Shown: positions 2,997-22,604 of the stretch, in pieces
Numbering within the stretch: the first letter of the stretch is position 1
How the letters are laid out: every line of letters begins with the position of its first letter
Virus record (IMG/VR): IMGVR_UViG_3300031766_000033
Location: 1 to 33,742 of that record
Direction: 5' to 3' (one strand)
Length of the DNA: 33,742 nucleotides
Source of the DNA: a virus
Taxonomy: Duplodnaviria > Caudoviricetes
Made by a program: the position numbers and the translations under genes
The notes under the pieces: model-generated
Databases searched by the model: none
What the model was told of the DNA's origin: nothing
The model's input: the letters and a program-made list of their open reading frames with translations, nothing else

Positions 2997-4469
2997 ATGG
3001 CGATTTTCGACATATTCACTAAGAAAGTGAAGCCAGAGCCTAAAATATTCAAACGAGCTTACGCTGCTGCCAATCCTGGTCGTTTGTTTGCCGACTTTAA
3101 GTCATCTGAGCGTTCCGCTGACTCTGAATTAAGCCCTGTCCTGAAAGTTATACGCAGCCGTTCTAGGGATTTAGTACGCAATAACCAATATGCAAAACGC
3201 TATATGAACTTGCTTAAGACCAATGTGATTGGCGGTAAGGGATTTGGCTTGCAGGTTAAGGCGCTAGATACAGTTGGTAAGCTCGATGAGACAGGCAATT
3301 CTGCGGTAGAACAGGCATTTATGCAGTGGGGTAAGCTAGGAAATCCTACTGTAGACGGCAGAATGGCTTGGGCTGACGCTCAGAGGCTGTGTTTAGAGGC
3401 TTTGGCGCGTGATGGCGAGGTCTTTGTAGTAAAACATCGCGGAAACGGCTTTAAAGACTCATTTGCAATAGAATTCATTGAGTCTGATCAGGTTGATGAG
3501 ACCAAGAATGAAAAACTAGCCAATGGTAACGAAATTCGCATGGGCGTTGAGCTGAACAAGTTCAAGAAGCCAGTTGCGTACCATTTCCTTAGCTACCATC
3601 CAGGCGATTACGACTTTACCACGATGTCTGTTTCTAAGAAGACGATTCGTATTCCTGCGGACAAGGTAATTCATGTATTTATGCCTTTACGCTCTGGTCA
3701 GACGCGAGGCGAGCCTTGGATGTCGCCAGCAATGTCTGGACTTAAGCAGTTAAGCGCTTACATTGAGGCTTCATTGGTTGCTGCTCGTGTTGGCGCGAGT
3801 AAGATGGGATTCTTTACTAGCCCAGGCGGTGATGGGTTTATTGCTGACGACCTAGATGGTCAAGTGCCAATCATGGACGCAGAACCTGGCACGTTCCATC
3901 AACTGCCTACAGGCGTAGACTTTAAGACATTTGACCCGCAGAACCCAAACAATGAGTTTGAGAGCTTCCATAAGTCAGTACTAAAGTCGGTCGCATCTGC
4001 TTTAGGTATCTCTTATACCTCTCTCAGCAACGATTTAGAGGCTACTAGCTACTCTAGTATTCGCCAGGGCGCGTTAGAAGAGCGTGATTATTACCGTGAT
4101 ATCCAGCAGTTTATGATAGATCACTTCGTTCGGCCTGTGTTTGAAGGATGGCTAGAAAGCGCGATGGAGATCAATTCATTCGGTATCCCGCTGCGCCAAT
4201 ACGACAGATTCTCTAATTCTGCTGAGTTCAGGGGTAAGGGATGGTCTTGGATTGACCCTCTGAAAGAGATGAACGCCTCGGTAGTTGGTCTTAAGAGCGG
4301 AATACTCTCTATTCAGGACGTAGCAAGCCAGTATGGGAAAGATGCAGAAGAATTAATGGCTCAGATACAACGCGATAAGAATCTTGCTGATCAGTTTGGC
4401 ATTAAGTACGCATTAGAGCCTTACGGAGCGCAGTTCGTACCACAAGAACCGGATTTGACTGATGACTAA
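2997..4469 (+). CDS. Portal protein, lambda family
   Basis: RSRSRDLVRNN, RDGEVF, GVELNKFKKPVAYH, GQTRGEPW, YSSIRQGALE, WSWIDPLKE. Confidence 0.97.
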   Translation: MAIFDIFTKKVKPEPKIFKRAYAAANPGRLFADFKSSERSADSELSPVLKVIRSRSRDLVRNNQYAKRYMNLLKTNVIGGKGFGLQVKALDTVGKLDETGNSAVEQAFMQWGKLGNPTVDGRMAWADAQRLCLEALARDGEVFVVKHRGNGFKDSFAIEFIESDQVDETKNEKLANGNEIRMGVELNKFKKPVAYHFLSYHPGDYDFTTMSVSKKTIRIPADKVIHVFMPLRSGQTRGEPWMSPAMSGLKQLSAYIEASLVAARVGASKMGFFTSPGGDGFIADDLDGQVPIMDAEPGTFHQLPTGVDFKTFDPQNPNNEFESFHKSVLKSVASALGISYTSLSNDLEATSYSSIRQGALEERDYYRDIQQFMIDHFVRPVFEGWLESAMEINSFGIPLRQYDRFSNSAEFRGKGWSWIDPLKEMNASVVGLKSGILSIQDVASQYGKDAEELMAQIQRDKNLADQFGIKYALEPYGAQFVPQEPDLTDD

Positions 4470-6939
4470 GTATAAAGGCGTAGATATCAATACAAAGCCA
4501 ACTGACGGCATGGTATCTGCTGCTCGCAAGGCACTTGATTGGCGTAAAGAATACGGCAGGGGTGGTACTGCGGTAGGAGTTGCTAGAGCTAGAGACATAA
4601 TCAATGGTTCTAATCTTAGTATTAGTACTGTAAAGCGAATGTACTCGTTCTTTGCCAGGCATGAAGTAGACAAGAAAGCAGAAGGCTTTAACTCTGGTGA
4701 AGAAGGATTCCCTAGCGCAGGAAGAATTGCTTGGGGTCTCTGGGGTGGTGACGCAGGACAAACATGGTCTAAGCGCATCGTGGATAGGATCAACTCTATT
4801 GACGATCGTAGCTATGATATAATCAACGACATAGCTGAAGAGGATTCAGACATGACGGATTTAGTAAACGAGGTGTTGATTGACGACACCGAGGAAGAGA
4901 TCGAGCAACGCGCTGAACCAGACGCTTTAAATGTCGGCGACTTTGTGAGCTGGAATAGTTCAGGCGGTCGCGCTCGTGGACGCATTGTTAAAATTGAAAG
5001 AGACGGTGAAATTAATGTCCCTGACTCTGATTTCAGCCTTGAAGGCACTGAAGAAAACCCAGCGGCCTTGATTAGACTTTATGATGGAGAGGGCGAGGAG
5101 ACAGATCGCTCTGTCGGTCACAAGTTTTCTACGTTAACTAAAATCGACCCTATTCGCGGCAATTATGATGAAGATCGTAAGGGTGATGTAGAAGTTCAGC
5201 ATCGCGCCATGTCGCTAGATGCGTCTCCTATTGATGAAGAGAAGCGCACAGTTAAGATTGCTATCTCATCCGAAGAGCCTGTATCTAGGTCATTTGGTAA
5301 TGAGGTATTAGAACATTCAGCCGAAGCGATTGATTTATCATTCCTCGCTTCAGGCAGAGCGCCACTGTTGCTGGATCATGACCCAGAGAAACAGATAGGC
5401 GTAATAGAATCGGTAGACCTTGATGGCTCGGCTCGTAGACTGCGAGCGACAGTACGCTTTGGAAAAGGCGCACTTGCTAGAGAGGCGTTCGATGATGTGT
5501 TGGACGGTATCCGCGCTAATATCAGTGTTGGTTATTCGATCAGCAAGATGCAGAAAGATGCTAGGGATGGCGAAACGTATATCGCTAAATCCTGGCGACC
5601 AATGGAAGCAAGTTTGGTGTCTATTCCTGCCGATGTGACAGTTGGCGTTGGACGGTCGAGCGAGCAGCCAAAGAAACCCGAAATCGTAACTTATGTGGAG
5701 GACAGTAAAATGTCTGAAGTAGATATCGCGGCTGTAGAGGCTCAAGCCCGTCAATCAGCCAGTAAGAATGCAGCTCAAATCCTTGAGCTTGGTCAGCGTC
5801 ACGGTCAGAGCGAGCTTGCTCACAAGGCTATTGCTGAAGGTACATCAATCGAAGAGTTCCGTGGTTCGGTTCTTGAGAAGATCGGTAGCGAACGCGCTCT
5901 CGAAGCTCAAGAGATCGGATTGACTAAAGAGCAGACTAAGCGCTTCTCACTAGTCAAGGCTATCCACGCTCTTGCAAACCCAACTGATCGCCGCGCTCAA
6001 GAAGCTGCTGCGTTTGAGTTCGAGGCTTCACGCGCTGCTGCTGAGCAGTACGGTCGCTCAGCTCAAGGCATCATGCTCCCTGCGGAAGTAATGAAGAACT
6101 GGAAGCGTGACCTGAACTCTGCTGATGATTCAGCGATCTTCGGTGATGATTTCCGTGGCGGTGACTTCATCGACGTACTGCGTAACGCTTCAAGCGTAAT
6201 GCAAGCTGGCGCAACAATGCTGTCTGGGCTCTCTGGCGATGTCAAAATCCCTAAGAAGACTGCTGCTGCAACTGCTGCTTGGATTGCTACTGAAGGTGGC
6301 GCGGCTGCTGAGAGCGAAATGACAGTTGGTCAGGTCTCAATGACTCCTAAGACTCTTGGTGCGTTCACTGACGTTACTCGTCAGCTACTCATCCAAAGCT
6401 CTTTGGACGTTGAGGCTCTTATCCGTAACGACCTCACTTCTGCTATGGCTCTTACTATTGATAAGGCTGGCTTGGAAGGCGCAGGTACAAGCGGAGCGCC
6501 TACTGGTATCCTGAGTACTTCTGGTGTGAACACTGTCTCTGCATTCGCTGCTGCTAACCCAACTTTTGCGGAAGTTGTTGGCCTTGAGACAGCAATTGCA
6601 GAAGACAACGCTCTCATGGGTAACCTTGCTTACATCCTCCCTGCGGGTATGTACGGCGCTCTGAAGACTACTGAGAAGGCTTCTGGTACTGCTCAGTTCG
6701 TCATCGAGCCAGGTGGCACTATGAACGGCTACCGCGCAATCGTTTCTAACCAAGCGACTGCTGGTAACCTTTACTTCGGCAACTTCTCTGACCTCCTTAT
6801 TGGAATGTTCGGTGGACTAGATATAGTAGTAGACCCATATACAGCGTCTACAACTGGTACTATCCGAGTAGTTGCTCTGCAATCAGTAGACGTAGCAGTA
6901 CGTCACGCTGTGAGCTTCGCCTTCGGTAACGACGGCTAG
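4462..6939 (+). CDS. Fused head polyprotein: unknown N-domain + Tudor/SH3-like domain + prohead protease + HK97-fold major capsid protein
   Basis: Protease motifs LLLDHD, ISVGY and EASLVSIPAD (about 5240-5660). Capsid motifs FIDVLRNAS, AWIATEG, QLLIQSS, YFGNFSDL and DVAVRH (5710-6939). Confidence 0.93.
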   Translation: MTKYKGVDINTKPTDGMVSAARKALDWRKEYGRGGTAVGVARARDIINGSNLSISTVKRMYSFFARHEVDKKAEGFNSGEEGFPSAGRIAWGLWGGDAGQTWSKRIVDRINSIDDRSYDIINDIAEEDSDMTDLVNEVLIDDTEEEIEQRAEPDALNVGDFVSWNSSGGRARGRIVKIERDGEINVPDSDFSLEGTEENPAALIRLYDGEGEETDRSVGHKFSTLTKIDPIRGNYDEDRKGDVEVQHRAMSLDASPIDEEKRTVKIAISSEEPVSRSFGNEVLEHSAEAIDLSFLASGRAPLLLDHDPEKQIGVIESVDLDGSARRLRATVRFGKGALAREAFDDVLDGIRANISVGYSISKMQKDARDGETYIAKSWRPMEASLVSIPADVTVGVGRSSEQPKKPEIVTYVEDSKMSEVDIAAVEAQARQSASKNAAQILELGQRHGQSELAHKAIAEGTSIEEFRGSVLEKIGSERALEAQEIGLTKEQTKRFSLVKAIHALANPTDRRAQEAAAFEFEASRAAAEQYGRSAQGIMLPAEVMKNWKRDLNSADDSAIFGDDFRGGDFIDVLRNASSVMQAGATMLSGLSGDVKIPKKTAAATAAWIATEGGAAAESEMTVGQVSMTPKTLGAFTDVTRQLLIQSSLDVEALIRNDLTSAMALTIDKAGLEGAGTSGAPTGILSTSGVNTVSAFAAANPTFAEVVGLETAIAEDNALMGNLAYILPAGMYGALKTTEKASGTAQFVIEPGGTMNGYRAIVSNQATAGNLYFGNFSDLLIGMFGGLDIVVDPYTASTTGTIRVVALQSVDVAVRHAVSFAFGNDG
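4813..4823 (+). promoter_or_regulatory. Candidate internal extended -10 promoter (TATGaTATAAT)
   Basis: TRTGnTATAAT consensus, followed by GAGGA (4840-4844) and an in-frame ATG at 4852. Confidence 0.5.
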
Positions 6940-6951
6940 TAAGACTTGAAT

Positions 6952-6981
6952 AGGGGCGGGTTTAGGCTCGCCCCTTTTCTT
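6952..6981 (+). terminator. Rho-independent terminator after the capsid gene
   Basis: Stem GGGGCGGG / CTCGCCCC (one G-U pair), loop TTTAGG, followed by TTTTCTT. Confidence 0.85.
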
Positions 6982-6992
6982 ACGAGGTATTT

Positions 6993-7199
6993 ATGAAATA
7001 CGAAGTCTTAAAGAATTGCGTCATCGACCGAGTAGCTCGGAAAAAAGGTGATGTAGTAGAAGTAGTAGAAGATATAAATGGACTACTGGGTATGGGACGT
7101 ATTATCCCTGCTACAGAGCCAGAGATTAAGGTTGACCGATCAGTAGGTCTTGAGACCTCTATTGAGCAGCCTAAGCGTCGAGGAAGAATCGCCAAGTGA
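6993..7199 (+). CDS. Small head-associated hypothetical protein
   Basis: GAGGT RBS. Directly follows the capsid gene, with a KKGDVVEV motif and a basic tail as in small post-capsid phage proteins. Confidence 0.65.
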   Translation: MKYEVLKNCVIDRVARKKGDVVEVVEDINGLLGMGRIIPATEPEIKVDRSVGLETSIEQPKRRGRIAK

Positions 7200-11460: not shown

Positions 11461-12011
11461 GCAGAGAGATAGATTCGGCAACGATTACTGCGCTGAATAG
11501 CGATAATCTCAATATTGCCAATTTAGTACAGATGGATTTTGACACGCCAATCAAGATTACTAATTGGGCGCGTGATGTTGTGGCTCTTAGTACTACTTTT
11601 GATAGCAGCTCTGATTTACTAGAGATTGATCAATTTACCGAAAGTTCAGAGCTTCAGGTTAACTCTTCTACGCTTAGATTCTCAGGTGTTAGCCAGACGT
11701 TTGTATCTCTATTCTTAACTAATGATTACATTGACGTTAGAACTAGAATATGGAAAGCAGTATTAACAAATTCTGACACCGTTATTGGTTCTCCAATATT
11801 AGTTTTTGATGGCAGGATTACATCTTACTCTATCGTAGATAGCCAAAATGACAGCGCTGTTTCTGTAGAAATCGCAAGTCACTGGAAGGATTTCCAACTT
11901 CGTAACGGAAGGAAAACAAATAATAATACGCAACAGCTTTATTTCTCTGGAGATAAAGGTTTTGAGTTTGCCTCAGAGACAAATAAAGAAATTAAGTGGG
12001 GTAAATCATAA
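11457..12011 (+). CDS. Tail hub / minor tail protein
   Basis: Position before the J-like gene; FDGRI, IASHWKDF, GRKTN, GDKGFEFA...IKWG. Confidence 0.7.
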   Translation: MSREIDSATITALNSDNLNIANLVQMDFDTPIKITNWARDVVALSTTFDSSSDLLEIDQFTESSELQVNSSTLRFSGVSQTFVSLFLTNDYIDVRTRIWKAVLTNSDTVIGSPILVFDGRITSYSIVDSQNDSAVSVEIASHWKDFQLRNGRKTNNNTQQLYFSGDKGFEFASETNKEIKWGKS

Positions 12012-15000
12012 TGTGGCCTATTTTAGCTGCAATCTTTGCTGTTGCAAGTGGCGCGGTATCTTATGTACAAGCTCGCAAGGCTCAGAAAGCAGCCAAGAAG
12101 GCGAATGATGAGCAGCGCGGTGTACTGGTCAACAAAGAAAGTAACATCGAGCAGATCCCTGTTATCTATGGCGAGCGCAGGGTCGGCGGTGTTCGTGTAT
12201 TCGTATCTACTGACGGTACATACAAGACCGTAGGCGGCTCTACAAGCTGGTATGCTGGCTACCATCCTGACACTGATAGCTATGATGATGTTAGCCCTAC
12301 TCCAACGAATGAGTATCTTTACATCGCATTGGTTATGGCTGAGGGCGAAGTAGAAAGCATCACGGATTTTATCATTGATGATCTTCCTATTACTGACCCT
12401 AAGTATTCAGGCTTGGTAGGCATCGATGTGTATCTCGGCGGCGATGATCAAACCATGCCTGATACAGCGTTGCTTAGAGAGGCAAACGAGTTCTGGACGG
12501 CAGAGCATAGACTTAGAGGCGTGGCTTTTATTGGGGTCAGGCTAAAGTGGGACGAAGAGGCATTCTCAGGCATCCCCGATATTACTGCTGTCGTTAAAGG
12601 TAAAAAGGTATATGACCCGCGAACAGCTACTACTGCTTGGTCTGACAACCCTGCTCTGTGTATTCGTGACTATCTCACCAACACTCGATACGGAAAGGGA
12701 TTACCAGTTAGCGCCATTGACGATGTGGCAATAGCTGCCGCTGCTAACGATTGCGATGAGTCAGTTACTCTGTACGATGGTGGCGGCTCTGGGAAGCTAT
12801 TCACCTGCAACGTAGTCTTAGACACTTCTAAAACGCTCTTTGATAACCTTGGTACTTTGCTTTTAGGATGCCGTGGCTTTCTTCCTTACTCTCAGGGTAA
12901 GTATCGACTTAAGATTGACGGTTCGCGTAGCAGTGAATTCACGTTTACTAATGACACGATCATTGGCGGGATTGAGATCCAGGGCGAAAGCAAGGACGAG
13001 AAGTTTAATCGCGTTACGGTTAAATTCCCTAATCCTGATGCCAACTGGCAACCTGACACTGCGATATGGCCTCCTGCTGACTCTGCCGAGGAAACAGCTT
13101 ATCTTGCTGAGGATGGCGGTGTTCTGCTGCATGAAGAGATTGATCTAGACACTATAACTAACTACTACCAGGCTAGAGACCTGGCTAGGGTTATCTTGCT
13201 GCGTTCCAGAAACGCAATAACCTGCGCCCTAACTACAACTTCAGAGGCGTTGCAGCTTGAGGTAACAGACGTAGTATCTGTTACTCACTCTACTTTAGGC
13301 TGGGTAGCAAAGCCGTTCCAGGTCATTGGTATGCAACTCAATGATGACGGAACAGTAGCCCTGGCATTGCTTGAGTACGACTCCACAGTCTACACATGGG
13401 AAGAAGGCACAGAACAGACTGCGTATCCAGATACGAGTCTGCCTGATCCGTTTACGGTTGGCGTGGTATCTAACATCACGGTTACTGAGACCACTACGCT
13501 AAGTTCTGACGGTACAGTTATACCTACTGGTTTGATCGAGTGGGACACATCATACGACCGTCTGGTTAATCAGTACGAGATACAGTACAAGCTGACCTCT
13601 GAGGCTGACACAGAGTTTAAGAGCCTGTTTACTAGTGTGCCTAAGTACGAGTTCTACAATGCGGAAGTGGGTACAAGCGTTACGATTCGTATCAGAGCGA
13701 TCAATACGCTGAACGTGAAAGGCGAGTTTACTACTGCTACGTTTACGGTAAATGGCGATCAAGACGCTCCCTCTATCCCATCCAGCTTAGCTGCTACAGC
13801 AGGGGCTTCCAATATTCGCTTGGATTGGACAAACCCCACGGAGACAGACCTGAAGATTATTGAGGTGTATCGGCATACCTCTAATGTCTCAGCGTCTGCA
13901 ACTAAAATTGCTAGTATTAATTCGGATTATTTTGTTGATCAAAACATAGCAACCGCGACTACTTATTACTACTGGGTCAAGGCAGTGGATTTCTCAGGCA
14001 ATGCGTCTGGGTTTTCTGCTTCTGCAAATGCGTCAGCTACTACCCTGACCGCTGACCTTGGCAGCATTGAAACTGATATCAGTACATTGCAAACGAATGT
14101 CGGTAGTTTGCAAGGCTCGGTCATTAATTTAAATTCTAATGTCAGCACTGCTCAATCAAATATTACGCAAGCGCAAGCCGATATTAATGCCGCTGAAAAC
14201 GACATTGTTAGCTTAGAAACGATAAGCAGCAGTCATACGTCTTCAATTAGCAATTTGAATACTACGGTAGGTAATAACAGTAGCAATATCACCACTCTTC
14301 AAGGCACGACTGCTACGAATGCATCTGATGTAACGGCGCTTGAAACCAGAGCGACCAATATTGAAGGTGATATTACTGCCACATCTACTGCTCTCAGCTC
14401 CTTAGACACGCGAGTAACTACGGCTGAAGGGACAATCACCACTCAAGCCTCTAGTATTACGTCTTTGGAATCTGATTTAACTAGCTTGGATGGGACAGTT
14501 TCAGGGAACGCGACAGCTATTAGTGGCTTAGATACACGAGTGACTAGCGCCGAGGGTACAATTACTTCTCAGTCTAGTGACATTACGACTCTGGAAAGCA
14601 ATTTAACAACAGCAGAAGGAAATATTACTGCAAACGCCACAGCAGTGGGCGGCTTAGACACTCGCGTAACATCAGCAGAAGGGAGTATCACAAGTCAAGC
14701 TAGTGATATTACTACGCTAGAAAACACAGTTAACGATCCGACGACAGGATTAACCGCAACAGTAACAGCAGTCGGTGGATTAGATACACGCATCACTTCT
14801 GCTGAAGGAACTCTGACTTCTGTATCAAGCGACGTAACAACACTTGAAAACACAGTTAACGATCCGACCACAGGAGTATCAGCTACGGCTACAGCGGTTG
14901 GTGGCTTAGATACTCGCATCACAACGGCAGAAGGCACGATAACTTCTCAATCTACTGACATCACAACGCTAGAAACCACTGTCTTTAATCCTACCATCGG

Positions 15001-16585
15001 CGTGACAGCTACAGCTATCGCTGTCGGGGGGCTAACGACTAGAGTGACATCGGCAGAAGGTACGATTACTTCGCAAGCCAGTGACATTACTACTTTAGAA
15101 ACCACTGTAAATAATGCGACCACCGGAGTGGCAGCTACAGCTACCGCTGTAGGAGGTTTAGATACTCGTGTAACGACTGCTGAGGGAACGATAACTTCTC
15201 AATCTACTGACATTACTACTTTAGAAAACAGTGTCTTTAATCCGACCACAGGAGTATCAGCTACGGCTACTGCTGTAGGCGGGTTAACTACTCGTGTAAC
15301 GACTGCTGAAGGCAATATAACTTCAATCGCATCTGATATTACTACGCTGACAACGACTGTAAACGGTAACACGACTAGCATCACCACTAACGCAAGCAGT
15401 ATCAACGGCGTAGAGGCGAAGTACACAGTAAAGATAGACAATAATGGTCACATCTCTGGTTACGGTCTTATCTCTACGGCGAATAATGCCACGCCAACTT
15501 CAACATTCTCTGTCAATGTTGATGCGTTCAAAATCACTAATGCCGCTCAAACGTCTACCCCTTTTGAGGTACTTACAACCGCCACCACGTTAGCTGACGG
15601 TACGACAAAACCTGCGGGGGTTTATATAAAGACCGCAAATATCGGGGTCTTAAATGCCAATCAGCTTACAGCGGGATTCATCAACGCTGATCGTATTAAC
15701 GCCAGTACCATTACTGCGTCAAAGCTACAATATGGCACTTCTCTGAGTTCTGGCAGCACTACTTGGGGCATAGGAGCAGGAGCTAGTGTAGCGGGTGTCA
15801 CAGGGGTGGGGGCTTTTGGTACAGGAAGTTCAGCCGCAGCTCTAGCCGCAGGGTCAAATGGTGGTTTGTTCGGCGGGTCTGTTGGCGCGACAGGATATGG
15901 TAATGCGAGCATCTCTGGGGGAACATGGACTACAGCAGGTGTTTTAGGTAACGGGTCAGGTGCGGGTGGGTACTTTGTTAGAACAGGGAGTACGAACGTC
16001 ACTCTCGCCAATGCAAGCTACGGACTTGAAACCGCATCAAGCATTTATGTCGGCGGCTCTTACCTGCCATTCACCGGAAGTCACGAGGCTATTGTCAGTG
16101 ATACCGTGAGCTTGGAGGCAGGAGACATCATGGTAGATGTATCTGTAATAGCTTCCTTGGGAGTGTCTACAGTATTAACTGAGGTATCTTTGTCGAGCGC
16201 TCCTAATCAAAAGACTGCAATTGGCGTGTTTAGCTATGCCGCTGAATCAGATTACGTCTCACCTACACTGCAAGAAGATATAACGGTACTTTCTGAAATT
16301 GAGGTTGTCACTCCTGTATATCAGACCAAAGCTGAATACACAGACACTATGGCTGGGAAGAAAACTGTCTATATCAATGCGGTCGGTGAAGGCATGATTA
16401 ACGTCTGCGGAGAAAGCGGCGACATTGAGCAAGGAGACCTGATCGTCACCAGTTCTATAGTTGGGAAAGGCATGAAGCAGGGAGATGATATAATACGCTC
16501 ATATACCGTGGCTAAGGCTCGTGAGAGCGCTACATTCTCATCCAGCGAAACCAAAACTATCGCTTGTATATATTTATGTGGGTAA
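12011..16585 (+). CDS. Tail tip / host-specificity protein (gpJ-like) with FN3 domains, a coiled-coil repeat stalk and a C-terminal chaperone-like domain
   Basis: IPVIYGERRVGG, VKGKKVYDPR, WSDNPALCIRDYLTNTRYG, FN3 motif YYYWVKAVDFSGN, heptad repeats, YTVKIDNNGHISGYGL. Confidence 0.92.
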   Translation: MWPILAAIFAVASGAVSYVQARKAQKAAKKANDEQRGVLVNKESNIEQIPVIYGERRVGGVRVFVSTDGTYKTVGGSTSWYAGYHPDTDSYDDVSPTPTNEYLYIALVMAEGEVESITDFIIDDLPITDPKYSGLVGIDVYLGGDDQTMPDTALLREANEFWTAEHRLRGVAFIGVRLKWDEEAFSGIPDITAVVKGKKVYDPRTATTAWSDNPALCIRDYLTNTRYGKGLPVSAIDDVAIAAAANDCDESVTLYDGGGSGKLFTCNVVLDTSKTLFDNLGTLLLGCRGFLPYSQGKYRLKIDGSRSSEFTFTNDTIIGGIEIQGESKDEKFNRVTVKFPNPDANWQPDTAIWPPADSAEETAYLAEDGGVLLHEEIDLDTITNYYQARDLARVILLRSRNAITCALTTTSEALQLEVTDVVSVTHSTLGWVAKPFQVIGMQLNDDGTVALALLEYDSTVYTWEEGTEQTAYPDTSLPDPFTVGVVSNITVTETTTLSSDGTVIPTGLIEWDTSYDRLVNQYEIQYKLTSEADTEFKSLFTSVPKYEFYNAEVGTSVTIRIRAINTLNVKGEFTTATFTVNGDQDAPSIPSSLAATAGASNIRLDWTNPTETDLKIIEVYRHTSNVSASATKIASINSDYFVDQNIATATTYYYWVKAVDFSGNASGFSASANASATTLTADLGSIETDISTLQTNVGSLQGSVINLNSNVSTAQSNITQAQADINAAENDIVSLETISSSHTSSISNLNTTVGNNSSNITTLQGTTATNASDVTALETRATNIEGDITATSTALSSLDTRVTTAEGTITTQASSITSLESDLTSLDGTVSGNATAISGLDTRVTSAEGTITSQSSDITTLESNLTTAEGNITANATAVGGLDTRVTSAEGSITSQASDITTLENTVNDPTTGLTATVTAVGGLDTRITSAEGTLTSVSSDVTTLENTVNDPTTGVSATATAVGGLDTRITTAEGTITSQSTDITTLETTVFNPTIGVTATAIAVGGLTTRVTSAEGTITSQASDITTLETTVNNATTGVAATATAVGGLDTRVTTAEGTITSQSTDITTLENSVFNPTTGVSATATAVGGLTTRVTTAEGNITSIASDITTLTTTVNGNTTSITTNASSINGVEAKYTVKIDNNGHISGYGLISTANNATPTSTFSVNVDAFKITNAAQTSTPFEVLTTATTLADGTTKPAGVYIKTANIGVLNANQLTAGFINADRINASTITASKLQYGTSLSSGSTTWGIGAGASVAGVTGVGAFGTGSSAAALAAGSNGGLFGGSVGATGYGNASISGGTWTTAGVLGNGSGAGGYFVRTGSTNVTLANASYGLETASSIYVGGSYLPFTGSHEAIVSDTVSLEAGDIMVDVSVIASLGVSTVLTEVSLSSAPNQKTAIGVFSYAAESDYVSPTLQEDITVLSEIEVVTPVYQTKAEYTDTMAGKKTVYINAVGEGMINVCGESGDIEQGDLIVTSSIVGKGMKQGDDIIRSYTVAKARESATFSSSETKTIACIYLCG
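14390..15400 (+). repeat. Eight tandem 126-nt (42-aa) coding repeats
   Basis: The L(D/T)TR(V/I)T(S/T)AEG unit recurs every 126 nt (e.g. 14402, 14528, 14654); TTAACGATCCGAC occurs at 14730 and 14856. Confidence 0.9.
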
Positions 16586-16588
16586 TCT

Positions 16589-16921
16589 ATGGACACTTTG
16601 TACTTAGTTCAATCGGACAATGGCACTCAGCTTAAGGTTGAAATAACCAGGGATGACACAGGCTTGCCTGTAGATTTAACTGGAGCGACTCCAACATTAA
16701 GATTTAAGAAAAAGAATACCGGAGTCATACTGACTGACATTAATTCCTCTTCTTTCAGTTCTAATGATCTTGAGGCTGGAATAGCTGTGTTTCAGTTTAA
16801 TGCGGCTGCATTAGCCATTACCGCAGGGGATTATGTGGCAGAGATTCAGGTCACATTTACTGATGGCACTGTCGAGACAGTATATGAAGAGCTGCAATTC
16901 GTGGTAAGAGAAGATTATTAA
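16589..16921 (+). CDS. BppU-N-like Ig-fold baseplate/fibre adaptor protein
   Basis: PVDLTGAT, GDYVAEIQVTFTDGTVETV...FVVREDY. Confidence 0.6.
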   Translation: MDTLYLVQSDNGTQLKVEITRDDTGLPVDLTGATPTLRFKKKNTGVILTDINSSSFSSNDLEAGIAVFQFNAAALAITAGDYVAEIQVTFTDGTVETVYEELQFVVREDY

Positions 16922-18459
16922 TGGCTAAGATGCATATTAGCAAACTGTTATCTCAGAGGCTGCGCTTACAGGCTACCTCTCAGCGACTGCGTATTGTTGC
17001 CGAAGTAGTCTTAGGTTCGTTTATTGGTCAAGGAATGAACTTGATTCATACGGCGACAGCTACTGACTTGCTTAGCTTTATCCTCAACAAACTTGCCGCT
17101 GATTCTGTCGGGACAACTGACCAAGCAAACTTTGCAATAGCTAAGGGCTTAAACGATCTTGCTGGCGTGACGGACAGCACATCTTTTGATGTATCTAAAC
17201 CTGCTGTAGACTTGTTCGCTGCTAATGATGAGTCGGCTATATCAACAGGTAAGATAGCAGAAGACACCTTTAGCATGACCGATAATGCCTTTTTTGGTAT
17301 TGGGCGCAATCCTGCTGACACAGTTTCATTGAACGAACTGCTTTCGTTCGATGCTGGTAAAACGCTGTCTGATTATTCCATAGCTTCTGATGTGGCTGGA
17401 TTATCACTTGCAAAGTCGTTTGCCGATACCGTGGCTATGACAGACTCTGTAGAAGCGTTGTTGTCTACTCTTCAATCCGCTACTGATGCAAGCTCGATCT
17501 TAGATCAACAAGTATTGTTACTCGGTAAAGGCGCTACAGATTCAGCTAGTGCTATCGACGAACAGTTGTTTGTCGTAGGTAAATTGTTTAATGACGCTCC
17601 GGTGGCGATTGATACTTTAGGTGTCAATTTGACTAAAGTGCTAGTGGACTCTGTTGCTATGTCAGACACATTGTCCGAGCTGTTGACGCGAGAGCAAGCG
17701 GCTTCAGACTCCGGTGTGTTGACAGATACCAATGTCTTGCTTGCAGGGAAGAACCCTGAAGACGTAGTTGGCACGATTGATACGCAAGCATTTGCGGTAG
17801 CCAAAGCCATTACCGATACGCCTATAGCTAGTGAGCAAATTGGGTTAAGCCTAGCTAAGACCTTGTTTGATGTAGTCAGTATGACTGACTCGCTCACAGC
17901 CTTGCTGTTGAGAGAGCAATCGGCCTCAGATTCTGGAGCGGTGACTGACGCTAACGCGCTGACCTTTGGGAAGCAGCCGCAAGAAACAACTATCACAACG
18001 GACACGCAAGCGTTTGCAATTACCAAGGGTCTGAATGATGCGGTGTATGCGACCGATGACATTGGCGCAGAAGCTACGCTCGATGATGATCAAACCCTGC
18101 AATTCCAAAAGCGACTGATTGATTTTGCAGGAATTAGCGACTCTGCGGAATTGGAAGCTGCTTTCACTAGAGGTTTTGCTGACGCTGGATCTATCACCGA
18201 TTCTGTAAATGTCTTTTTACAGTACGCCAGACCACAGGTAGATGCGCTGTCTGCGTATGACTCTGTAAGCATCAGTGCTGAATATGACAGGCAGATCGGG
18301 GATGGCACGACTACTCAAGACAATTTGGTCTCATTGGTTGGAAAAGTGAAATCTGATATACTTGGCGTAGAGGATTCTGGCTTTCTATTAAGTCAGGACT
18401 ATATTGACAACAACCTGTACTTTGCTAACGATTATGTTGGTGAAAAACGTACTTTTTAG
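16921..18459 (+). CDS. Repetitive acidic virion structural protein (probable fibre/whisker)
   Basis: About 18-aa D-x5-D...K-x3-D units organised into three 74-aa (222 nt) super-repeats (ATG codons at 17437, 17659, 17881). Located in the tail module. Confidence 0.6.
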   Translation: MAKMHISKLLSQRLRLQATSQRLRIVAEVVLGSFIGQGMNLIHTATATDLLSFILNKLAADSVGTTDQANFAIAKGLNDLAGVTDSTSFDVSKPAVDLFAANDESAISTGKIAEDTFSMTDNAFFGIGRNPADTVSLNELLSFDAGKTLSDYSIASDVAGLSLAKSFADTVAMTDSVEALLSTLQSATDASSILDQQVLLLGKGATDSASAIDEQLFVVGKLFNDAPVAIDTLGVNLTKVLVDSVAMSDTLSELLTREQAASDSGVLTDTNVLLAGKNPEDVVGTIDTQAFAVAKAITDTPIASEQIGLSLAKTLFDVVSMTDSLTALLLREQSASDSGAVTDANALTFGKQPQETTITTDTQAFAITKGLNDAVYATDDIGAEATLDDDQTLQFQKRLIDFAGISDSAELEAAFTRGFADAGSITDSVNVFLQYARPQVDALSAYDSVSISAEYDRQIGDGTTTQDNLVSLVGKVKSDILGVEDSGFLLSQDYIDNNLYFANDYVGEKRTF

Positions 18460-18934: not shown

Positions 18935-19564
18935 ATGGCTACAATTACCACAAGGGCGGGTAAAGGCTCGCCTCTAACAAATACAGAGGTTGATGCTAAT
19001 TTCACCAACCTCAATACTGACAAGCTGGAGGCGGGGGACGACTTAGGGACTCCCTCGGCTGTAGTTCTCACTAATGCTACAAGTTTGCCTAGCGGCTCTC
19101 TAACAGGGACTGTCGCGGTAGCTAATGGCGGCACAGGCTCGTCTACTGCTTCTGGGGCGTTAACGAATCTGGGGCTTACAGCCACGGCAGTAGAACTAAA
19201 TTATATTGACGGCGTTACCTCCGCAATTCAGGATCAGCTAAATTACTCTGATGACCGCACCATCAATGCGCTAGGCAGTGTCAGCGGCACTACTGACATT
19301 GATTTAGCTGATGGAACTAACGTCACTGCGACGATAGCCGCAGCCACTACATTTACGATTAGCGGCATTACTAGCGGGTCAGTGAATACAGTGACCTTGT
19401 ATCTCACGAACGCAGGGGCTTACACAATTACATGGCCTTCCGGTACGACATTTAATAGGAATGCCGCGCCTGTTCTACCTGCTTCCGGTGATACGATCAT
19501 CGTTCTTGAAACTTATGACAATGCTACTTCTTACGCAGGTATACAGGTCTGGAGAAGTGTTTAA
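18935..19564 (+). CDS. Tail fibre protein with a C-terminal adaptor domain
   Basis: N-terminal RAGKGSPLTNTEVDANFTNLN; fibre motifs VAVANGGTG and ELNYIDGVTSAIQDQL; C-terminal DLADG...TITWPSG domain. Confidence 0.7.
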   Translation: MATITTRAGKGSPLTNTEVDANFTNLNTDKLEAGDDLGTPSAVVLTNATSLPSGSLTGTVAVANGGTGSSTASGALTNLGLTATAVELNYIDGVTSAIQDQLNYSDDRTINALGSVSGTTDIDLADGTNVTATIAAATTFTISGITSGSVNTVTLYLTNAGAYTITWPSGTTFNRNAAPVLPASGDTIIVLETYDNATSYAGIQVWRSV

Positions 19565-21042
19565 TGAGTCGCAATTTATTGGCAGGAGGTGACTTTCTTA
19601 CAACTTTTGATACGAGTTGGGTGACTTCGTTTAATACTCTTAGAGCCACAAACACTAGCTACAACACTAATCGTGTTACTACCTTTGCGACATCTAACGC
19701 CACTACAACAAGCTATGCGACAAATGTAACGACTACGTTCTCAACTCTTGTCCCGACTAGCACAAGCAACTCAACTAGCCGTGTGACCAGTTATCTGACT
19801 GCCGTACCCGCGACATACGCCAACACTTCGCGTGTTACGACTATCACAACAACTTACAATACTACTGTCCCTGCGGTTAATCAAAATACAAGTCGTATCA
19901 CACAAATAACGACAACGTATAACACGACAGTCCCTGCTACTTACGCGAATACTTCTAATGTAACGAATTTCACAACAAGTTATTCTACCTATGTGCCTCC
20001 GACGTACAGGGCAACAAGTCATGTTACGTCCTACACTACAACTTACGCGACAACCTATCCTGCTGTGTATAGGTCAACAAGCAACCCGACAGGAGTAGCG
20101 GCCTCTCGCATTACGTCATATTTAACATATTACACAACAACGTATTCAACATTGGTAACTGCTGCTTCCACAGTTTCTACGTCTAACGCGACGACTAGAA
20201 CTACGACATTCAACACAAGTTTTACCGGCACTGCTTATAGATATTTTACAGACTCAGGTTGCGGCTCAGAAGCAGGGTTTAGTCCTGTCTTTAGCGGTTG
20301 TTCGGGAACTAAATCACCAGGCGGCTGCGGCGGCTGTATTCCGACTCCTGGCGGCAGCGGTTATGAGTCTATTCAATCATGCTCTTCGTCTACCTGTACG
20401 AGCAGCACTAGCAATTCAACAAGCTACACAACAACTTACAATACAACTGTTCCTGCTGTTTATCGAAACACTAGCCATGTTACGTCTAAGACCACTTCAA
20501 ATAGCACGGCATACACTAGCACTATCACGACAACCTATAGCACATTAGTCAGCGCGGCATACAGCCAGAACACAAGTCACACAACTAGCAAAACAACTAG
20601 CTACAGCACACAGACTGCCGCAGGATACAACAGAACAACGTCTCATGTTACAAGCAGGACAACAACTTACAGCACTCAAACTGCTGCTGCATTTGTTCGT
20701 AGCACTAGCAATGTCACTGACATTACCACGACCTTCAGCACTGAGGTTGCGGCATCGTTTGTTCGCAGCACTAGTCACGCAACCACGATTACGACAACTT
20801 ACAGCACTCAAACTGCTGCGGGATTTGATAGGACTACAAGTCATACTACGACTTATACAACGACCTTCAATACTGATGTTCCGCAGAACACCTCTAGGTT
20901 GACTGCTAGAACAACAAGTAACGCTACAACGACAACTTATAACACAAGCAACACCACTACGTTTGCTACGTCACGCTCTACGAATACCAGTGTTTTGACT
21001 AGCCGCACAACCACTTTCTCAACATCCAACTACACAGGTTAA
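19564..21042 (+). CDS. Thr/Ser-rich fibre/adhesin protein with a central Cys/Gly-rich knob
   Basis: Thr at roughly every fourth residue, 21- and 22-aa repeats, and six Cys confined to aa 233-278. Translationally coupled (TAATG) to the fibre gene. Confidence 0.7.
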   Translation: MSRNLLAGGDFLTTFDTSWVTSFNTLRATNTSYNTNRVTTFATSNATTTSYATNVTTTFSTLVPTSTSNSTSRVTSYLTAVPATYANTSRVTTITTTYNTTVPAVNQNTSRITQITTTYNTTVPATYANTSNVTNFTTSYSTYVPPTYRATSHVTSYTTTYATTYPAVYRSTSNPTGVAASRITSYLTYYTTTYSTLVTAASTVSTSNATTRTTTFNTSFTGTAYRYFTDSGCGSEAGFSPVFSGCSGTKSPGGCGGCIPTPGGSGYESIQSCSSSTCTSSTSNSTSYTTTYNTTVPAVYRNTSHVTSKTTSNSTAYTSTITTTYSTLVSAAYSQNTSHTTSKTTSYSTQTAAGYNRTTSHVTSRTTTYSTQTAAAFVRSTSNVTDITTTFSTEVAASFVRSTSHATTITTTYSTQTAAGFDRTTSHTTTYTTTFNTDVPQNTSRLTARTTSNATTTTYNTSNTTTFATSRSTNTSVLTSRTTTFSTSNYTG

Positions 21043-21047
21043 GACTT

Positions 21048-21539
21048 ATGCTTTATTTAAAGCTCAACGCAGAAGGTCAGCCTAGCGAATATCCATTTAC
21101 GGAAGAGCAGGTCAGGGCTGATTTATCTCATGTAACTTTAGCTGAATTAACTGATGCCAATTTAGCCGCTCATGGATATGCTCTGCTGCATCCGACATCA
21201 GTTACTCCTCCTGCTCCTTCCAAAACGCACAGAGTGATTGTAAATGGCGCTGAATTTGATGGCGGGAAGTGGGTACGAACTTATAGCTCAGAAGAGATAA
21301 CTAGTGACCAGATTAAAAACCTTCGCATGGAGAATAAATGGAAATCTATTCGCCAACTGAGAGATCACTACATGGCTATGACTGAGTGGCGTATACAAAG
21401 AAATCTACGAGAGACTCGCATGGGAATCACTGTCACGGAGCCTATAGCTGATCTTGATGCTTTGATGCAGCGACTTGCTGATGTTACTAATGTTGATGAC
21501 CCTTATTTGGTTAATTTTACGGATGTAATTAACGGATGA
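21048..21539 (+). CDS. Tail fibre assembly chaperone-like protein
   Basis: EYPFT, GKWVRTY and KWKSIRQLRD...TEWR...Q+LAD+T resemble phage tail assembly chaperones encoded downstream of fibres. Confidence 0.65.
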   Translation: MLYLKLNAEGQPSEYPFTEEQVRADLSHVTLAELTDANLAAHGYALLHPTSVTPPAPSKTHRVIVNGAEFDGGKWVRTYSSEEITSDQIKNLRMENKWKSIRQLRDHYMAMTEWRIQRNLRETRMGITVTEPIADLDALMQRLADVTNVDDPYLVNFTDVING

Positions 21540-22441
21540 GATTAGCCCACGAACGAATGGCTGACCAAAACATTCAGGAGTCTAAAATAGGCTCCTTGGT
21601 GCGATCTGCTCGCAATTCTTGGGCTGAAAGCATTGAGGGTATTATTCGTAAGCATAGCCCTTACCCTATCACTTATGATGTTGGGCAAATACAGACCACA
21701 CGTTTTACTGAATACACCTACACTGAGCTATTATCAGGGGCATGGATAGCCACGCAGTCTAGGGAGATGAATTGTCGTATTAACAGCTTACTAATTAACG
21801 CTGACGAGACAATTAAACTGGATGATTTGGCAGCTTGTCTAACGGATAAGTACAACTTAAAAAGTGTAGAGCATACTCACAGTGGCGCTAAAAAGGTCGT
21901 GTTTATTCCCGGTCATAATATGCTAGATGTTTCATCTGTGGAGCTAATAACTCGGCTTGTACATGAAGACCAAGATGTAGTTATCAAGCCTCACCCACTG
22001 ACTAATGATGAGGCTTTAGGTTTTCTAGGTACAAGGTTTGGTTGGAACCGCATGGCTGACAAAATGGCAAGTGGTCACAAGATGCTATTAGATGCTGACA
22101 TTGTATATACAACCTCTGCGTCAGAGTTCTCGTTATCAGCTACCGCGCTTGGCAAGAAGGTTGTTAATGTCTCCAACTTCTTTAATGAGTTGGTAGGCGC
22201 TTATTATCCCATATCACGCTTCTTGTTTCTGGCGCACAAGGAATCAGTGGCTAAGGCACAGTCTGTCCTGAGCTGCTTAGTTAATTCTGACAAAAGCGGC
22301 TTAGTATTTCCGTGGCAGGACAACATAGAAAACCGGATTGAGTCGTACTATGCCAATAGCTTAGATGTGAAGCAGCGTTATCAATGCTTCACTGATAAGA
22401 GCCAGAAGAATGTTATTCAAGGTGAGAAAGTTAATGTCTGA
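21536..22441 (+). CDS. Putative GT-B glycosyltransferase, KpsC/KpsS (capsule synthesis)-like
   Basis: LTDKYNL (compare SKYN), VVIKPHP (HP motif), LLDADIVYTTSASEFSLSATALGKKV (compare VxTxxSxxGxEAxxxGKxV). Confidence 0.55.
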   Translation: MRLAHERMADQNIQESKIGSLVRSARNSWAESIEGIIRKHSPYPITYDVGQIQTTRFTEYTYTELLSGAWIATQSREMNCRINSLLINADETIKLDDLAACLTDKYNLKSVEHTHSGAKKVVFIPGHNMLDVSSVELITRLVHEDQDVVIKPHPLTNDEALGFLGTRFGWNRMADKMASGHKMLLDADIVYTTSASEFSLSATALGKKVVNVSNFFNELVGAYYPISRFLFLAHKESVAKAQSVLSCLVNSDKSGLVFPWQDNIENRIESYYANSLDVKQRYQCFTDKSQKNVIQGEKVNV

Positions 22442-22604
22442 CAAAAACCCACAAGTGGCAAAACGAATCGCTATCTGTAAATCATGCCCAGAGCTTACGA
22501 TTATAAAGACCTGCAAAAAGTGCGCTTGCTTTATGCCAGCCAAGATTCGTATTCCTTCAGCTTCATGCCCAATGCTGAAATGGCTTCCTGCTGAAAAGCC
22601 GTAA
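22434..22604 (+). CDS. Small Cys-rich protein (DUF6171-like)
   Basis: RIAICKSCP...CKKCACFMPAK...ASCPMLKW. The ATG at 22434 overlaps the upstream stop. Confidence 0.65.
   Translation: MSDKNPQVAKRIAICKSCPELTIIKTCKKCACFMPAKIRIPSASCPMLKWLPAEKP

Follow-up and report, generated by a model that had tools for sequence, protein, structure and literature searches.

A Thr-rich protein of a lambda-like siphophage, a candidate folded-back beta-ribbon with a variable cysteine knob

The thrombospondin type 1 repeat alternately stacks aromatic and Arg side chains of antiparallel strands into a Trp/Arg ladder, with cross-strand disulfides and glycosylation, in a three-stranded module of about 55 residues that is repeated as beads. 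The primary study of mycobacteriophage glycosylation reportedly found capsid or tail-tube subunits to be modified. Glycosyltransferase genes of mycobacteriophages have been proposed to modify virion proteins (PMC11256854). Among phage fibres, the needle of T4 gp37 runs outward from residue 882 to 931, carries the receptor-binding tip at 932-959 and runs back from 960 to 1009 (PMC6957217), and gp38 is described as monomeric (PMC12032242).

The stretch of DNA analysed here, called the window, comprises positions 1 to 33,742 (33,742 nt) of the virus record IMGVR_UViG_3300031766_000033 (Duplodnaviria; Caudoviricetes). By gene content it is a lambda-like siphophage, with recognised genes for terminase, portal, protease-capsid fusion, tail tube, tape measure and distal tail protein. 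Among the side-fibre genes 3' of the J-like central fibre lies an ORF (19564-21042, plus strand) for a protein of 492 aa, called the stalk protein in the following, which is present in a single copy in the record and has no match in Pfam or PHROG. The features of this region are:

12011-16585: J-like central fibre
18935..19564, plus strand: side-fibre protein, 209 aa (PHROG 9017 tail fibre, E 3.8e-6)
19226-19561, plus strand: conserved tip domain of about 105 aa at the C-terminal end of the 209-aa side-fibre protein
19564..19593, plus strand: N-terminal leader of the stalk protein, aa 1-10, short and unpaired, putative anchor
19594..20238, plus strand: predicted outbound Thr-rich strand, aa 11-225, with 21-aa units and Pro kinks
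20239..20397, plus strand: Gly/Cys knob, aa 226-278, with six Cys, variable
20398..21042, plus strand: predicted return Thr-rich strand, aa 279-492, with 22-aa units and Ala-Ala kinks, complementing the outbound strand
21048..21539, plus strand: Tfa-like tail-fibre assembly chaperone, 163 aa (PHROG 4912; PF16778 in homologues)
21536..22441, plus strand: probable GT-B glycosyltransferase with a CMP-sugar as donor, KpsC-like, 301 aa (PHROG 26179)
22410..22604, plus strand: small Cys-rich DUF6171-like protein, 64 aa (PF19668, E 3.4e-5, 24.6 bits, below the cut-off of 27)

Thr (n = 155) and Ser (n = 77) are abundant in the 492-aa protein and together account for 50% of its arms. A preliminary description of this DNA had proposed a mirror-symmetric protein that folds back at a Gly-rich, Cys-bearing centre, and the underlying pattern was confirmed, apart from small corrections. 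All six Cys (233, 246, 255, 258, 273 and 278) and 11 of the 19 Gly lie within residues 233-278. The five Pro kinks of the N-terminal arm (82, 103, 124, 145 and 166) are separated by four intervals of 21 residues each, and the reciprocal order of kinks is as described, with LVTAA (197-201) in the N-terminal and TVPAV (P297) in the C-terminal arm and with LVPT (P64) and DVPQ (P440) at the outer ends. The five Ala kinks of the C-terminal arm are present (starting at 331, 352, 374, 396 and 418), but their spacing is not the uniform 22 residues claimed, since the first of the four intervals is 21 (21, 22, 22 and 22). The recurrence of Thr at every fourth residue is seen in the autocorrelation at lag 4, which is 0.42 in the N-terminal and 0.28 in the C-terminal arm. 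The positions of paired kinks sum to 497-504, and this places the fold-back centre near residue 250 and not at residue 255 as first proposed. A DNA palindrome as source of the symmetry is excluded, since the gene has no inverted repeats; direct DNA repeats occur at 63- and 66-nt steps. N-glycosylation sequons include 26 of the 33 Asn, but Ser or Thr follows Tyr (24/34) and Arg (19/21) equally often, and the sequons are therefore rejected as a glycosylation signal and regarded as a by-product of the four-residue beat.

Relatives were hardly accessible with the stalk protein itself. Used as a direct query, it retrieved no homologue at E 1e-10 from 7999 candidates, viral scans gave two loci, and phmmer against 1.84 billion representatives gave five weak matches, none annotated; the best Atlas feature score (0.80) was in the chance range and structure matches had a TM of 0.27 or less. 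Profile searches may miss the module because of its low complexity. The family was reached via a profile of the neighbouring 301-aa enzyme, which led to 60 viral and 73 metagenome loci; 137 enzyme loci were counted, four of which came through the stalk (L005 and L006, without a match, were dropped), and many of these are repeats of a contig or near-identical viruses. A Thr-rich ORF ends at most 900 nt upstream of the enzyme gene in 116 of the 137 loci. The other 21 include 18 that are cut within 800 nt and two cut within 1600 nt; in the remaining one, L060, each of the two neighbouring genes terminates in a mirror stretch of about 130 aa rich in Thr and Tyr. Altogether, 61 distinct full-length stalks of 141-1032 aa were obtained. 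A genome scan gave two loci only, a contig of a Polynucleobacter MAG and a Caulobacter chromosome. As far as our searches reach, the stalk family is widespread and was previously unannotated and undescribed.

Paired indels in both arms had been predicted for homologues of a folded-back chain, and they were found. The closest relative, L001 (363 aa), lacks three 21-aa units of the N-terminal arm and three 22-aa units of the C-terminal arm (492 - 63 - 66 = 363). Among the 55 Cys-bearing stalks, the segment N-terminal of the first Cys and that C-terminal of the last one are correlated in length with r = 0.97. On an enzyme tree of 52 loci, from which stalks with fewer than four Cys, truncated enzymes and L134 were excluded, 36 of 51 contrasts change by at least 5 aa, and the arms change with the same sign in 34 of these 36; the contrast correlation of arm lengths is 0.99 raw and 0.83 standardised. 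Arm lengths that vary independently would speak against the fold-back, and such behaviour was seen in two one-sided changes (L022 versus L023, 0/26 aa; L029 versus L050, 0/10 aa). Unequal paired indels occur as well, for example 64/50, and assembly errors are possible among the odd cases.

Every fourth residue of the arms is either aromatic or aliphatic or one of Arg, Lys, His, Asn and Gln, and when the strands are read antiparallel, a residue of one class faces a residue of the other. This was scored with a matrix in which the N-terminal arm is compared with the reversed C-terminal arm, aromatic:cation pairs being rewarded and like:like pairs penalised. Because the matrix was set after the window protein, L173 and the Cys contexts had been seen, the other members of the family are the fairer test. 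The window protein has an antiparallel score of 56.7 and a parallel score of 17.3, and none of 100 block shuffles (14.1 +/- 5.0) reached the former. Its pairs comprise 19 aromatic:cation, 12 aromatic:Asn/Gln, 7 aliphatic:cation, 1 aromatic:aromatic and 0 cation:cation, and one register holds R90/Y413, I94/I409, Y98/H405 and V102/R401. The antiparallel score exceeded the parallel score in all of the 38 representatives, with z >3 in 30 of them for the antiparallel and in 5 for the parallel arrangement. The cognate C-terminal arm ranked first of 38 in 32 cases, a rank to which length matching contributes, and the cognate score exceeded both self-arm scores in 30 of 38.

The strongest evidence for pairing comes from split forms, in which the strands reside on two genes and which bear on the window by homology of the pattern, not by alignment. 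They were obtained with a DNA motif scan that did not use the enzyme. In L173, a one-way Thr strand of about 110 aa leads into a PF21722 glycine-rich domain (above cut-off), and a separate pure Thr ORF encodes 111 aa; the two can be paired with 23 matches, no clash and no internal gap. L179 (1211 aa) and L181 (1042 aa), which are adjacent genes, give 182 aromatic:cation matches with 1 clash and 2 gaps (score 716), and L188 and L189 give 152 matches with 2 clashes and 2 gaps (score 627); when the partners are crossed, the scores are 392 and 373 and the gaps number 19 and 17. A register kept between two genes over 900-1000 residues is hard to explain without antiparallel contact along the length. 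As judged from the sequences, it is highly probable that two strands pair in antiparallel orientation.

The cysteines point in the same direction. Their number is even in 52 of 55 Cys-bearing relatives (in three, trimming of the start had removed upstream Cys), as expected for a disulfide-type knob, the proposal having been a disulfide- or metal-bound tip. A first test for a Cys ladder (constant i+j, gap shuffling) gave p <0.05 in only 1 of 38 stalks, being swamped by the Cys of the knobs. A nested-pair test counted from the outside, devised post hoc after this failure, gave a depth of 41 compared to 23.1 in shuffled sequences (maximum 36 in 10,000 shuffles; p 1e-4), a result from 17 clusters that is driven by L031, L021 and L103. 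The outer mirror Cys pairs are 67-277 residues apart, and in 26 of 27 relatives the two positions of the pair add up to 7-17 more than length+1. In the window protein, where Cys are confined to the knob, P64 and P440 sum to length+1+11. Together, these offsets indicate that about ten N-terminal residues are unpaired; Arg3 in this segment is nearly invariant (28 aligned stalks). A register scan of the terminal 40 residues has modes at offsets 11 (12/61) and 15 (9/61), which are aliased by the four-residue beat. In 18 of 44 pairs, with 6.6 expected, the residues that follow the mirror Cys are complementary, a cation on one strand being matched by an aromatic or acidic residue on the other; this is the best of 15 offsets tried, and the pairs are not independent. 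The DUF6171-like gene is found beside 48 of 50 stalks with at least four Cys and beside none of 7 with fewer, a distribution confounded with clade. Since the gene tracks Cys-rich stalks, this suggests a thiol-handling role, though the distribution follows the tree.

Paired indels, mirror Cys pairs and the complement code uphold the long-range antiparallel fold-back that was originally proposed. The composition of the arms would also suit a Thr-rich beta-solenoid or a mucin-like, disordered and glycosylated tether with a folded knob in mid-chain. The repeat units are partly self-complementary, the chain halves of split forms alone scoring z 10-17, and an AlphaFold2 model of the relative L214 made without alignment is solenoid-like with short strands every 10 residues, at a low pLDDT of 40.6 and a pTM of 0.31. 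For the window protein, the Atlas model reaches a pLDDT of 0.38. However, neither state explains the paired indels, the constant register of Cys that are far apart in the chain or the two-gene complementarity with 2 gaps. As to short coils stacked in parallel, as in Thr-rich solenoids of the ice-binding type, the parallel score was above the antiparallel one in none of the 38 representatives, while the low-confidence L214 model is solenoid-like. Both states are considered very improbable.

More weight has to be given to a trimeric needle. Here the path would be the same, but three or more chains would form a bundle of the kind seen in T4 gp37 or lambda Stf, and the Tfa-like protein would be the chaperone of their trimerisation. 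The gp37 needle is a stem-tip-stem, six-stranded antiparallel trimer that requires a Tfa-type chaperone (PMC6957217, PMC9659904), a Tfa-like gene lies 3' of the stalk gene in the Cys-rich clade, and the evidence from paired indels and code is compatible with such a bundle. The earlier statement that the protein is unlike trimeric phage fibres was thus too strong, since the gp37 needle also runs out and back (PMC6957217) and the stalk ORF is followed by a Tfa-like gene. The Tfa-like protein of the window itself matches nothing in a Pfam scan; its homologues L004 and L075 pass the PF16778 cut-off and L049 and L017 match below it (2 of 5 homologues scanned are above). The chaperone may, however, serve the upstream fibre, and the Cys-poor clade, Lullwater included, has no Tfa-like gene between stalk and enzyme. 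HxH iron-binding motifs of the gp37 type are absent from all 61 stalk proteins, in which His amounts to 0.4%, and the alternation of Arg and aromatic residues on one face would be easier to accommodate in an exposed ladder than in a three-fold core. The absence of HxH leans to a ribbon and the Tfa-like gene to a trimeric needle; on balance we regard the bundle as unlikely and moderately favour one ribbon.

Where the ribbon would sit is suggested by the order of the genes, from which we infer that it is mounted on the tip domain of the 209-aa fibre. A domain of about 105 aa similar to that of the window ends the upstream gene in most relatives (38 aligned); two of the 38 matched the beta-sandwich PF25692, and a PDB search gave no match below E 0.12. 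In L063 and L064, the upstream gene ends in a peptidase S74 chaperone instead, and their stalks begin with a different leader. A complex prediction with three tip domains of the window and one L001 stalk had a score of 0.00 and gave no answer.

The knob had been proposed to be variable, and it does diverge faster than the arms: in 12 of 14 close pairs, which overlap, the identity over the Cys span is lower than in either arm, with the arm identity inflated by low complexity. Between the window protein and L068, identity is 49% in the knob, 81% and 80% in the arms and 90% in the enzyme. The tips are interchangeable between members of the family and comprise Cys knobs (2-24 Cys), turns without a knob, a glycine-rich domain and Hint-like modules (below cut-off). 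The tail fibre gene upstream, PF21722 on the L173 strand and the lower conservation of the knob make it likely that the stalk is a fibre-tip probe. Alternatively, the filament could be a passive appendage for drag, shielding, spacing or decoy, with the knob as a stable turn only. L057, L064 and L219, which are without a distinct knob, would fit, as would phage ERS: its host range is narrower than that of most of its cluster (PMC11053796, section 3.3), but its stalk differs from that of BL199 in one residue, located in the return arm, which counts against a simple host-range role of the knob. However, the knob diverges fast, its place is taken in relatives by a glycine-rich domain of the gp38 type or by Hint-like modules, and the stalk gene adjoins a tail fibre gene in siphophages as well as in podo- and myophages. 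This makes a merely passive role quite unlikely compared to that of a probe.

The 301-aa neighbour is probably a KpsC-like CMP-sugar glycosyltransferase, as far as sequence comparison can tell. PDB matches to KpsC were weak (E 0.058-0.17) and ranked among chance matches to kinesins, and PF05159 was found in 3 of 31 enzyme members at E 0.019 or worse; in the Atlas cluster of the protein (score 0.94, 179 shared features), 58% of the members have PF05159. The CMP site of KpsC includes an HP motif, a Tyr and a Lys-Tyr (PMC10148158), and the enzyme carries the HP motif and the Tyr and Lys-Tyr donor-site residues in the same order; the positions were matched through their order and spacing and not on a structural basis. 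Y62, N128, K151, H153 and P154 are present in 28 of 28 sequences and D104-K105-Y106 in 27 of 28. The nucleophile Asp of the QXXXD motif is absent, position N128 +4 being mostly Val, Ile, Leu or Met in the 28 sequences (Asp is found at N128 +3 in 17 of 28), and for this reason the enzyme was not placed in GT107. As the HP motif is common to CMP-sialic-acid enzymes (PMC10148158), an inverting CMP-sugar enzyme is likelier.

Stalk and enzyme genes are coupled in both directions. The enzyme-independent DNA motif scan gave 131 loci, and the first 80 examined contained at least 19 distinct Thr-rich ORFs, 17 of them with at least 1500 nt downstream; in 14 of these 17, one of which repeats L010, the enzyme gene is present. 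The Thr-rich ORFs of the other three have 75 aa, 178 aa (Cys-rich) and 438 aa (cut). It is nevertheless conceivable that the stalk is real and the KpsC-like protein does not glycosylate it, acting on a host or phage glycan or as a non-catalytic, strand-binding folding partner. The missing nucleophile Asp, the KpsC matches below significance and phage DLP6, which has the enzyme but no adjacent Thr-rich stalk in the stretch read, fit this possibility. The stalk just upstream in 116 of 137 enzyme loci, with most of the others cut short, the enzyme beside motif-found stalks and the almost invariant HP and Lys-Tyr residues make it doubtful, though by no means far-fetched; glycosylation of the stalk is, in our estimate, an evenly balanced matter. 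A tblastn search with the enzyme led to 45 phage records. The order annotated tail fibre, Thr-rich protein, enzyme is seen in Lullwater, Quill, BL198, BL199 and ERS, and shorter Thr-rich versions are found in Cr30 (116 aa) and KVP40 (197 aa). As the cassette is carried by cultured Caulobacter phages (Lullwater, BL198, BL199, ERS and Cr30), each step of the mechanism proposed below is testable.

According to this mechanism, opposite residue classes at every fourth position would fix one antiparallel register in a zipper-like manner. One face of the ribbon may be a cation-pi ladder of stacked code residues; the other face would be formed by Ser, Thr and Asn, plus cross-strand Cys pairs in relatives, and the difference between 21- and 22-residue units would give one bulge per unit. 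The leader of about ten residues would dock on the tip domain of the upstream fibre and the Tfa-like protein would assist assembly, as gene order suggests, while the knob would bind the host surface. With regard to two-way gene coupling, it is tempting to speculate that the Thr/Ser face receives an acidic sugar from the enzyme, either Kdo or a nonulosonic acid in its CMP-activated form, and that this would keep the edge-exposed ribbon soluble and stiff. A beta-strand rises 0.30-0.34 nm per residue, and about 215 residue pairs would then give a stalk of 65-73 nm under this assumption. That this account holds as a whole, with a folded-back ribbon on the side-fibre tip that presents a variable knob some 65-70 nm out and is possibly O-glycosylated, seems to us somewhat more plausible than not. 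A further generalization is tentative and falls a little short of an even chance: a new fibrous class, the sequence-programmed beta-zipper, in which a two-letter code of aromatic versus cationic at every fourth residue would permit a single antiparallel register along 50 to 1000 pairs, in one chain or between two chains from separate genes. Phages would thereby gain modular filaments about 15 to 300 nm long whose tips could be exchanged (Cys knob, polyglycine domain or Hint-like module) and which would be O-glycosylated by a CMP-sugar transferase of their own. If true, pairing partner and register of a protein fibre could be read from sequence, like base pairing, and protein design would gain from nature a programmable beta-zipper whose tip can be replaced. 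"Hypothetical" genes common to sipho-, podo- and myophages would acquire a role, as an overlooked host-recognition module, and the enzyme would be a candidate for a phage glycosyltransferase dedicated to a fibre.

No description of family, code or cassette was found in the open-licence literature searched, and neither was a counterpart of the register-setting code and the two-gene form. To our knowledge, the predicted lengths of the stalks would exceed those of the two-stranded ribbons known. Unlike the thrombospondin type 1 repeat, the stalk would be one continuous strand pair in which the order of classes sets the register, also between two chains. In contrast to the mycobacteriophage case, one enzyme is tied to one Thr-rich fibre gene. 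This enzyme resembles the CMP-Kdo transferases KpsC (GT107) and WbbB (GT99) in its HP motif and in a Tyr, a Lys-Tyr and an amide residue 23 later, in the same order (PMC10148158), but is without the Asp four past the amide residue, has a single domain and presumably uses a protein as acceptor.

Like bovine ultralong CDR H3, the stalk would end in a variable disulfide knob (PMC5994613, PMC10523490); the whole loop of the former has up to 70 residues and is part of an antibody, so that this is an analogy only and no homology is expected. With T2/S16-type gp38, it shares a separate gene 3' of the fibre gene and, by inference, the capping of the fibre tip via its N-terminal part, and the gene order of the cassette fits a gp38-style placement. 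However, gp38 is compact, with attachment domain, beta-helix and polyglycine sandwich (PMC12032242), whereas the window protein would be a long paired stalk and has no match to the polyglycine sandwich or beta-helix, PF21722 being found only in the relative L173. The needle of T4 gp37 and lambda Stf has the same arrangement of stem, tip and stem, with both ends at the base and the tip at the turn, and a Tfa-type chaperone gene downstream (PMC6957217, PMC9659904). Its stem has 50 residues and the trimer is held by seven His-bound irons, whereas the stalk arms have 45-500 residues (about 1000 in split forms), are Thr-rich and carry an aromatic/cation code and disulfide-type Cys. Homology to the collar or needle of gp37/Stf was found neither in Pfam or PHROG nor among annotations of the phmmer matches. 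Apparently, the stalk would work like a fibre-tip adhesin and yet stand outside the gp37 needle and gp38 families.

Hint-like domains recur at the tips of the related stalks or beside them:

L179 3222-6857 and L188 3102-6452 (loci of split-form stalk chains), the protein P0041, and L143 177-1655 (a T4-like phage): Hint-like domain at or near the tip of the stalk or of a neighbouring protein

A short and often Cys-rich peptide lies C-terminal to the Hint-like domain, and the tip may be processed by these domains.

The annotated stalk gene of phage Quill (gp41, L148 1528-2082) loses its Thr-rich frame close to the 3' end and looks frameshifted, which is either real or a sequencing error. The near-identical viruses L022 and L023 differ by 26 aa confined to the return arm; this is either an exception to the paired change of arm lengths or an assembly error.

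The surroundings of the KpsC-like enzyme gene vary. On a 228-kb contig (L060) it lies between two 422-aa paralogues (3621-4889 and 5877-7145), each terminated by a mirror stretch of about 130 aa and differing in their middles. T4-like phages (L063, L064, L142, L143) have a second conserved gene (210-280 aa) downstream of the enzyme gene; two of its products were scanned against Pfam, without a significant match. A Caulobacter chromosome (L150 2719-4978) carries genes for the tip domain, the stalk and the enzyme beside an insertion sequence; this cassette is probably a prophage remnant.

Two further genes of the window were noted:

16921-18459: Asp/Ser/Thr/Ala-rich protein (512 aa), between the BppU-like gene and the side-fibre genes
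4462-6939: protease-capsid fusion (825 aa) with an additional Hva1 Tudor-like domain

The former has short imperfect repeats, matches nothing in Pfam or PHROG and is kept in the close relative L001. In the latter, the Tudor-like domain (aa 159-205, match above the cut-off) is N-terminal to the protease.

Variant and stalk-like architectures were also seen. A permuted form (L163 3402-3944) has the attachment-like domain in its centre, an N-arm rich in aromatics, a C-arm rich in cations and three Cys at the C terminus. P0040, a protein of 946 aa with carbohydrate-binding and propeller-like matches, has at its C-terminal end four Thr units of 22 aa, which a short turn separates from four units that look complementary to them. 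L134 (2016-3995) has a different architecture next to the same enzyme: an extended region of Thr-Pro-Ser repeats that contains Cys clusters, and after it, at the C terminus, a Thr-rich mirror segment.
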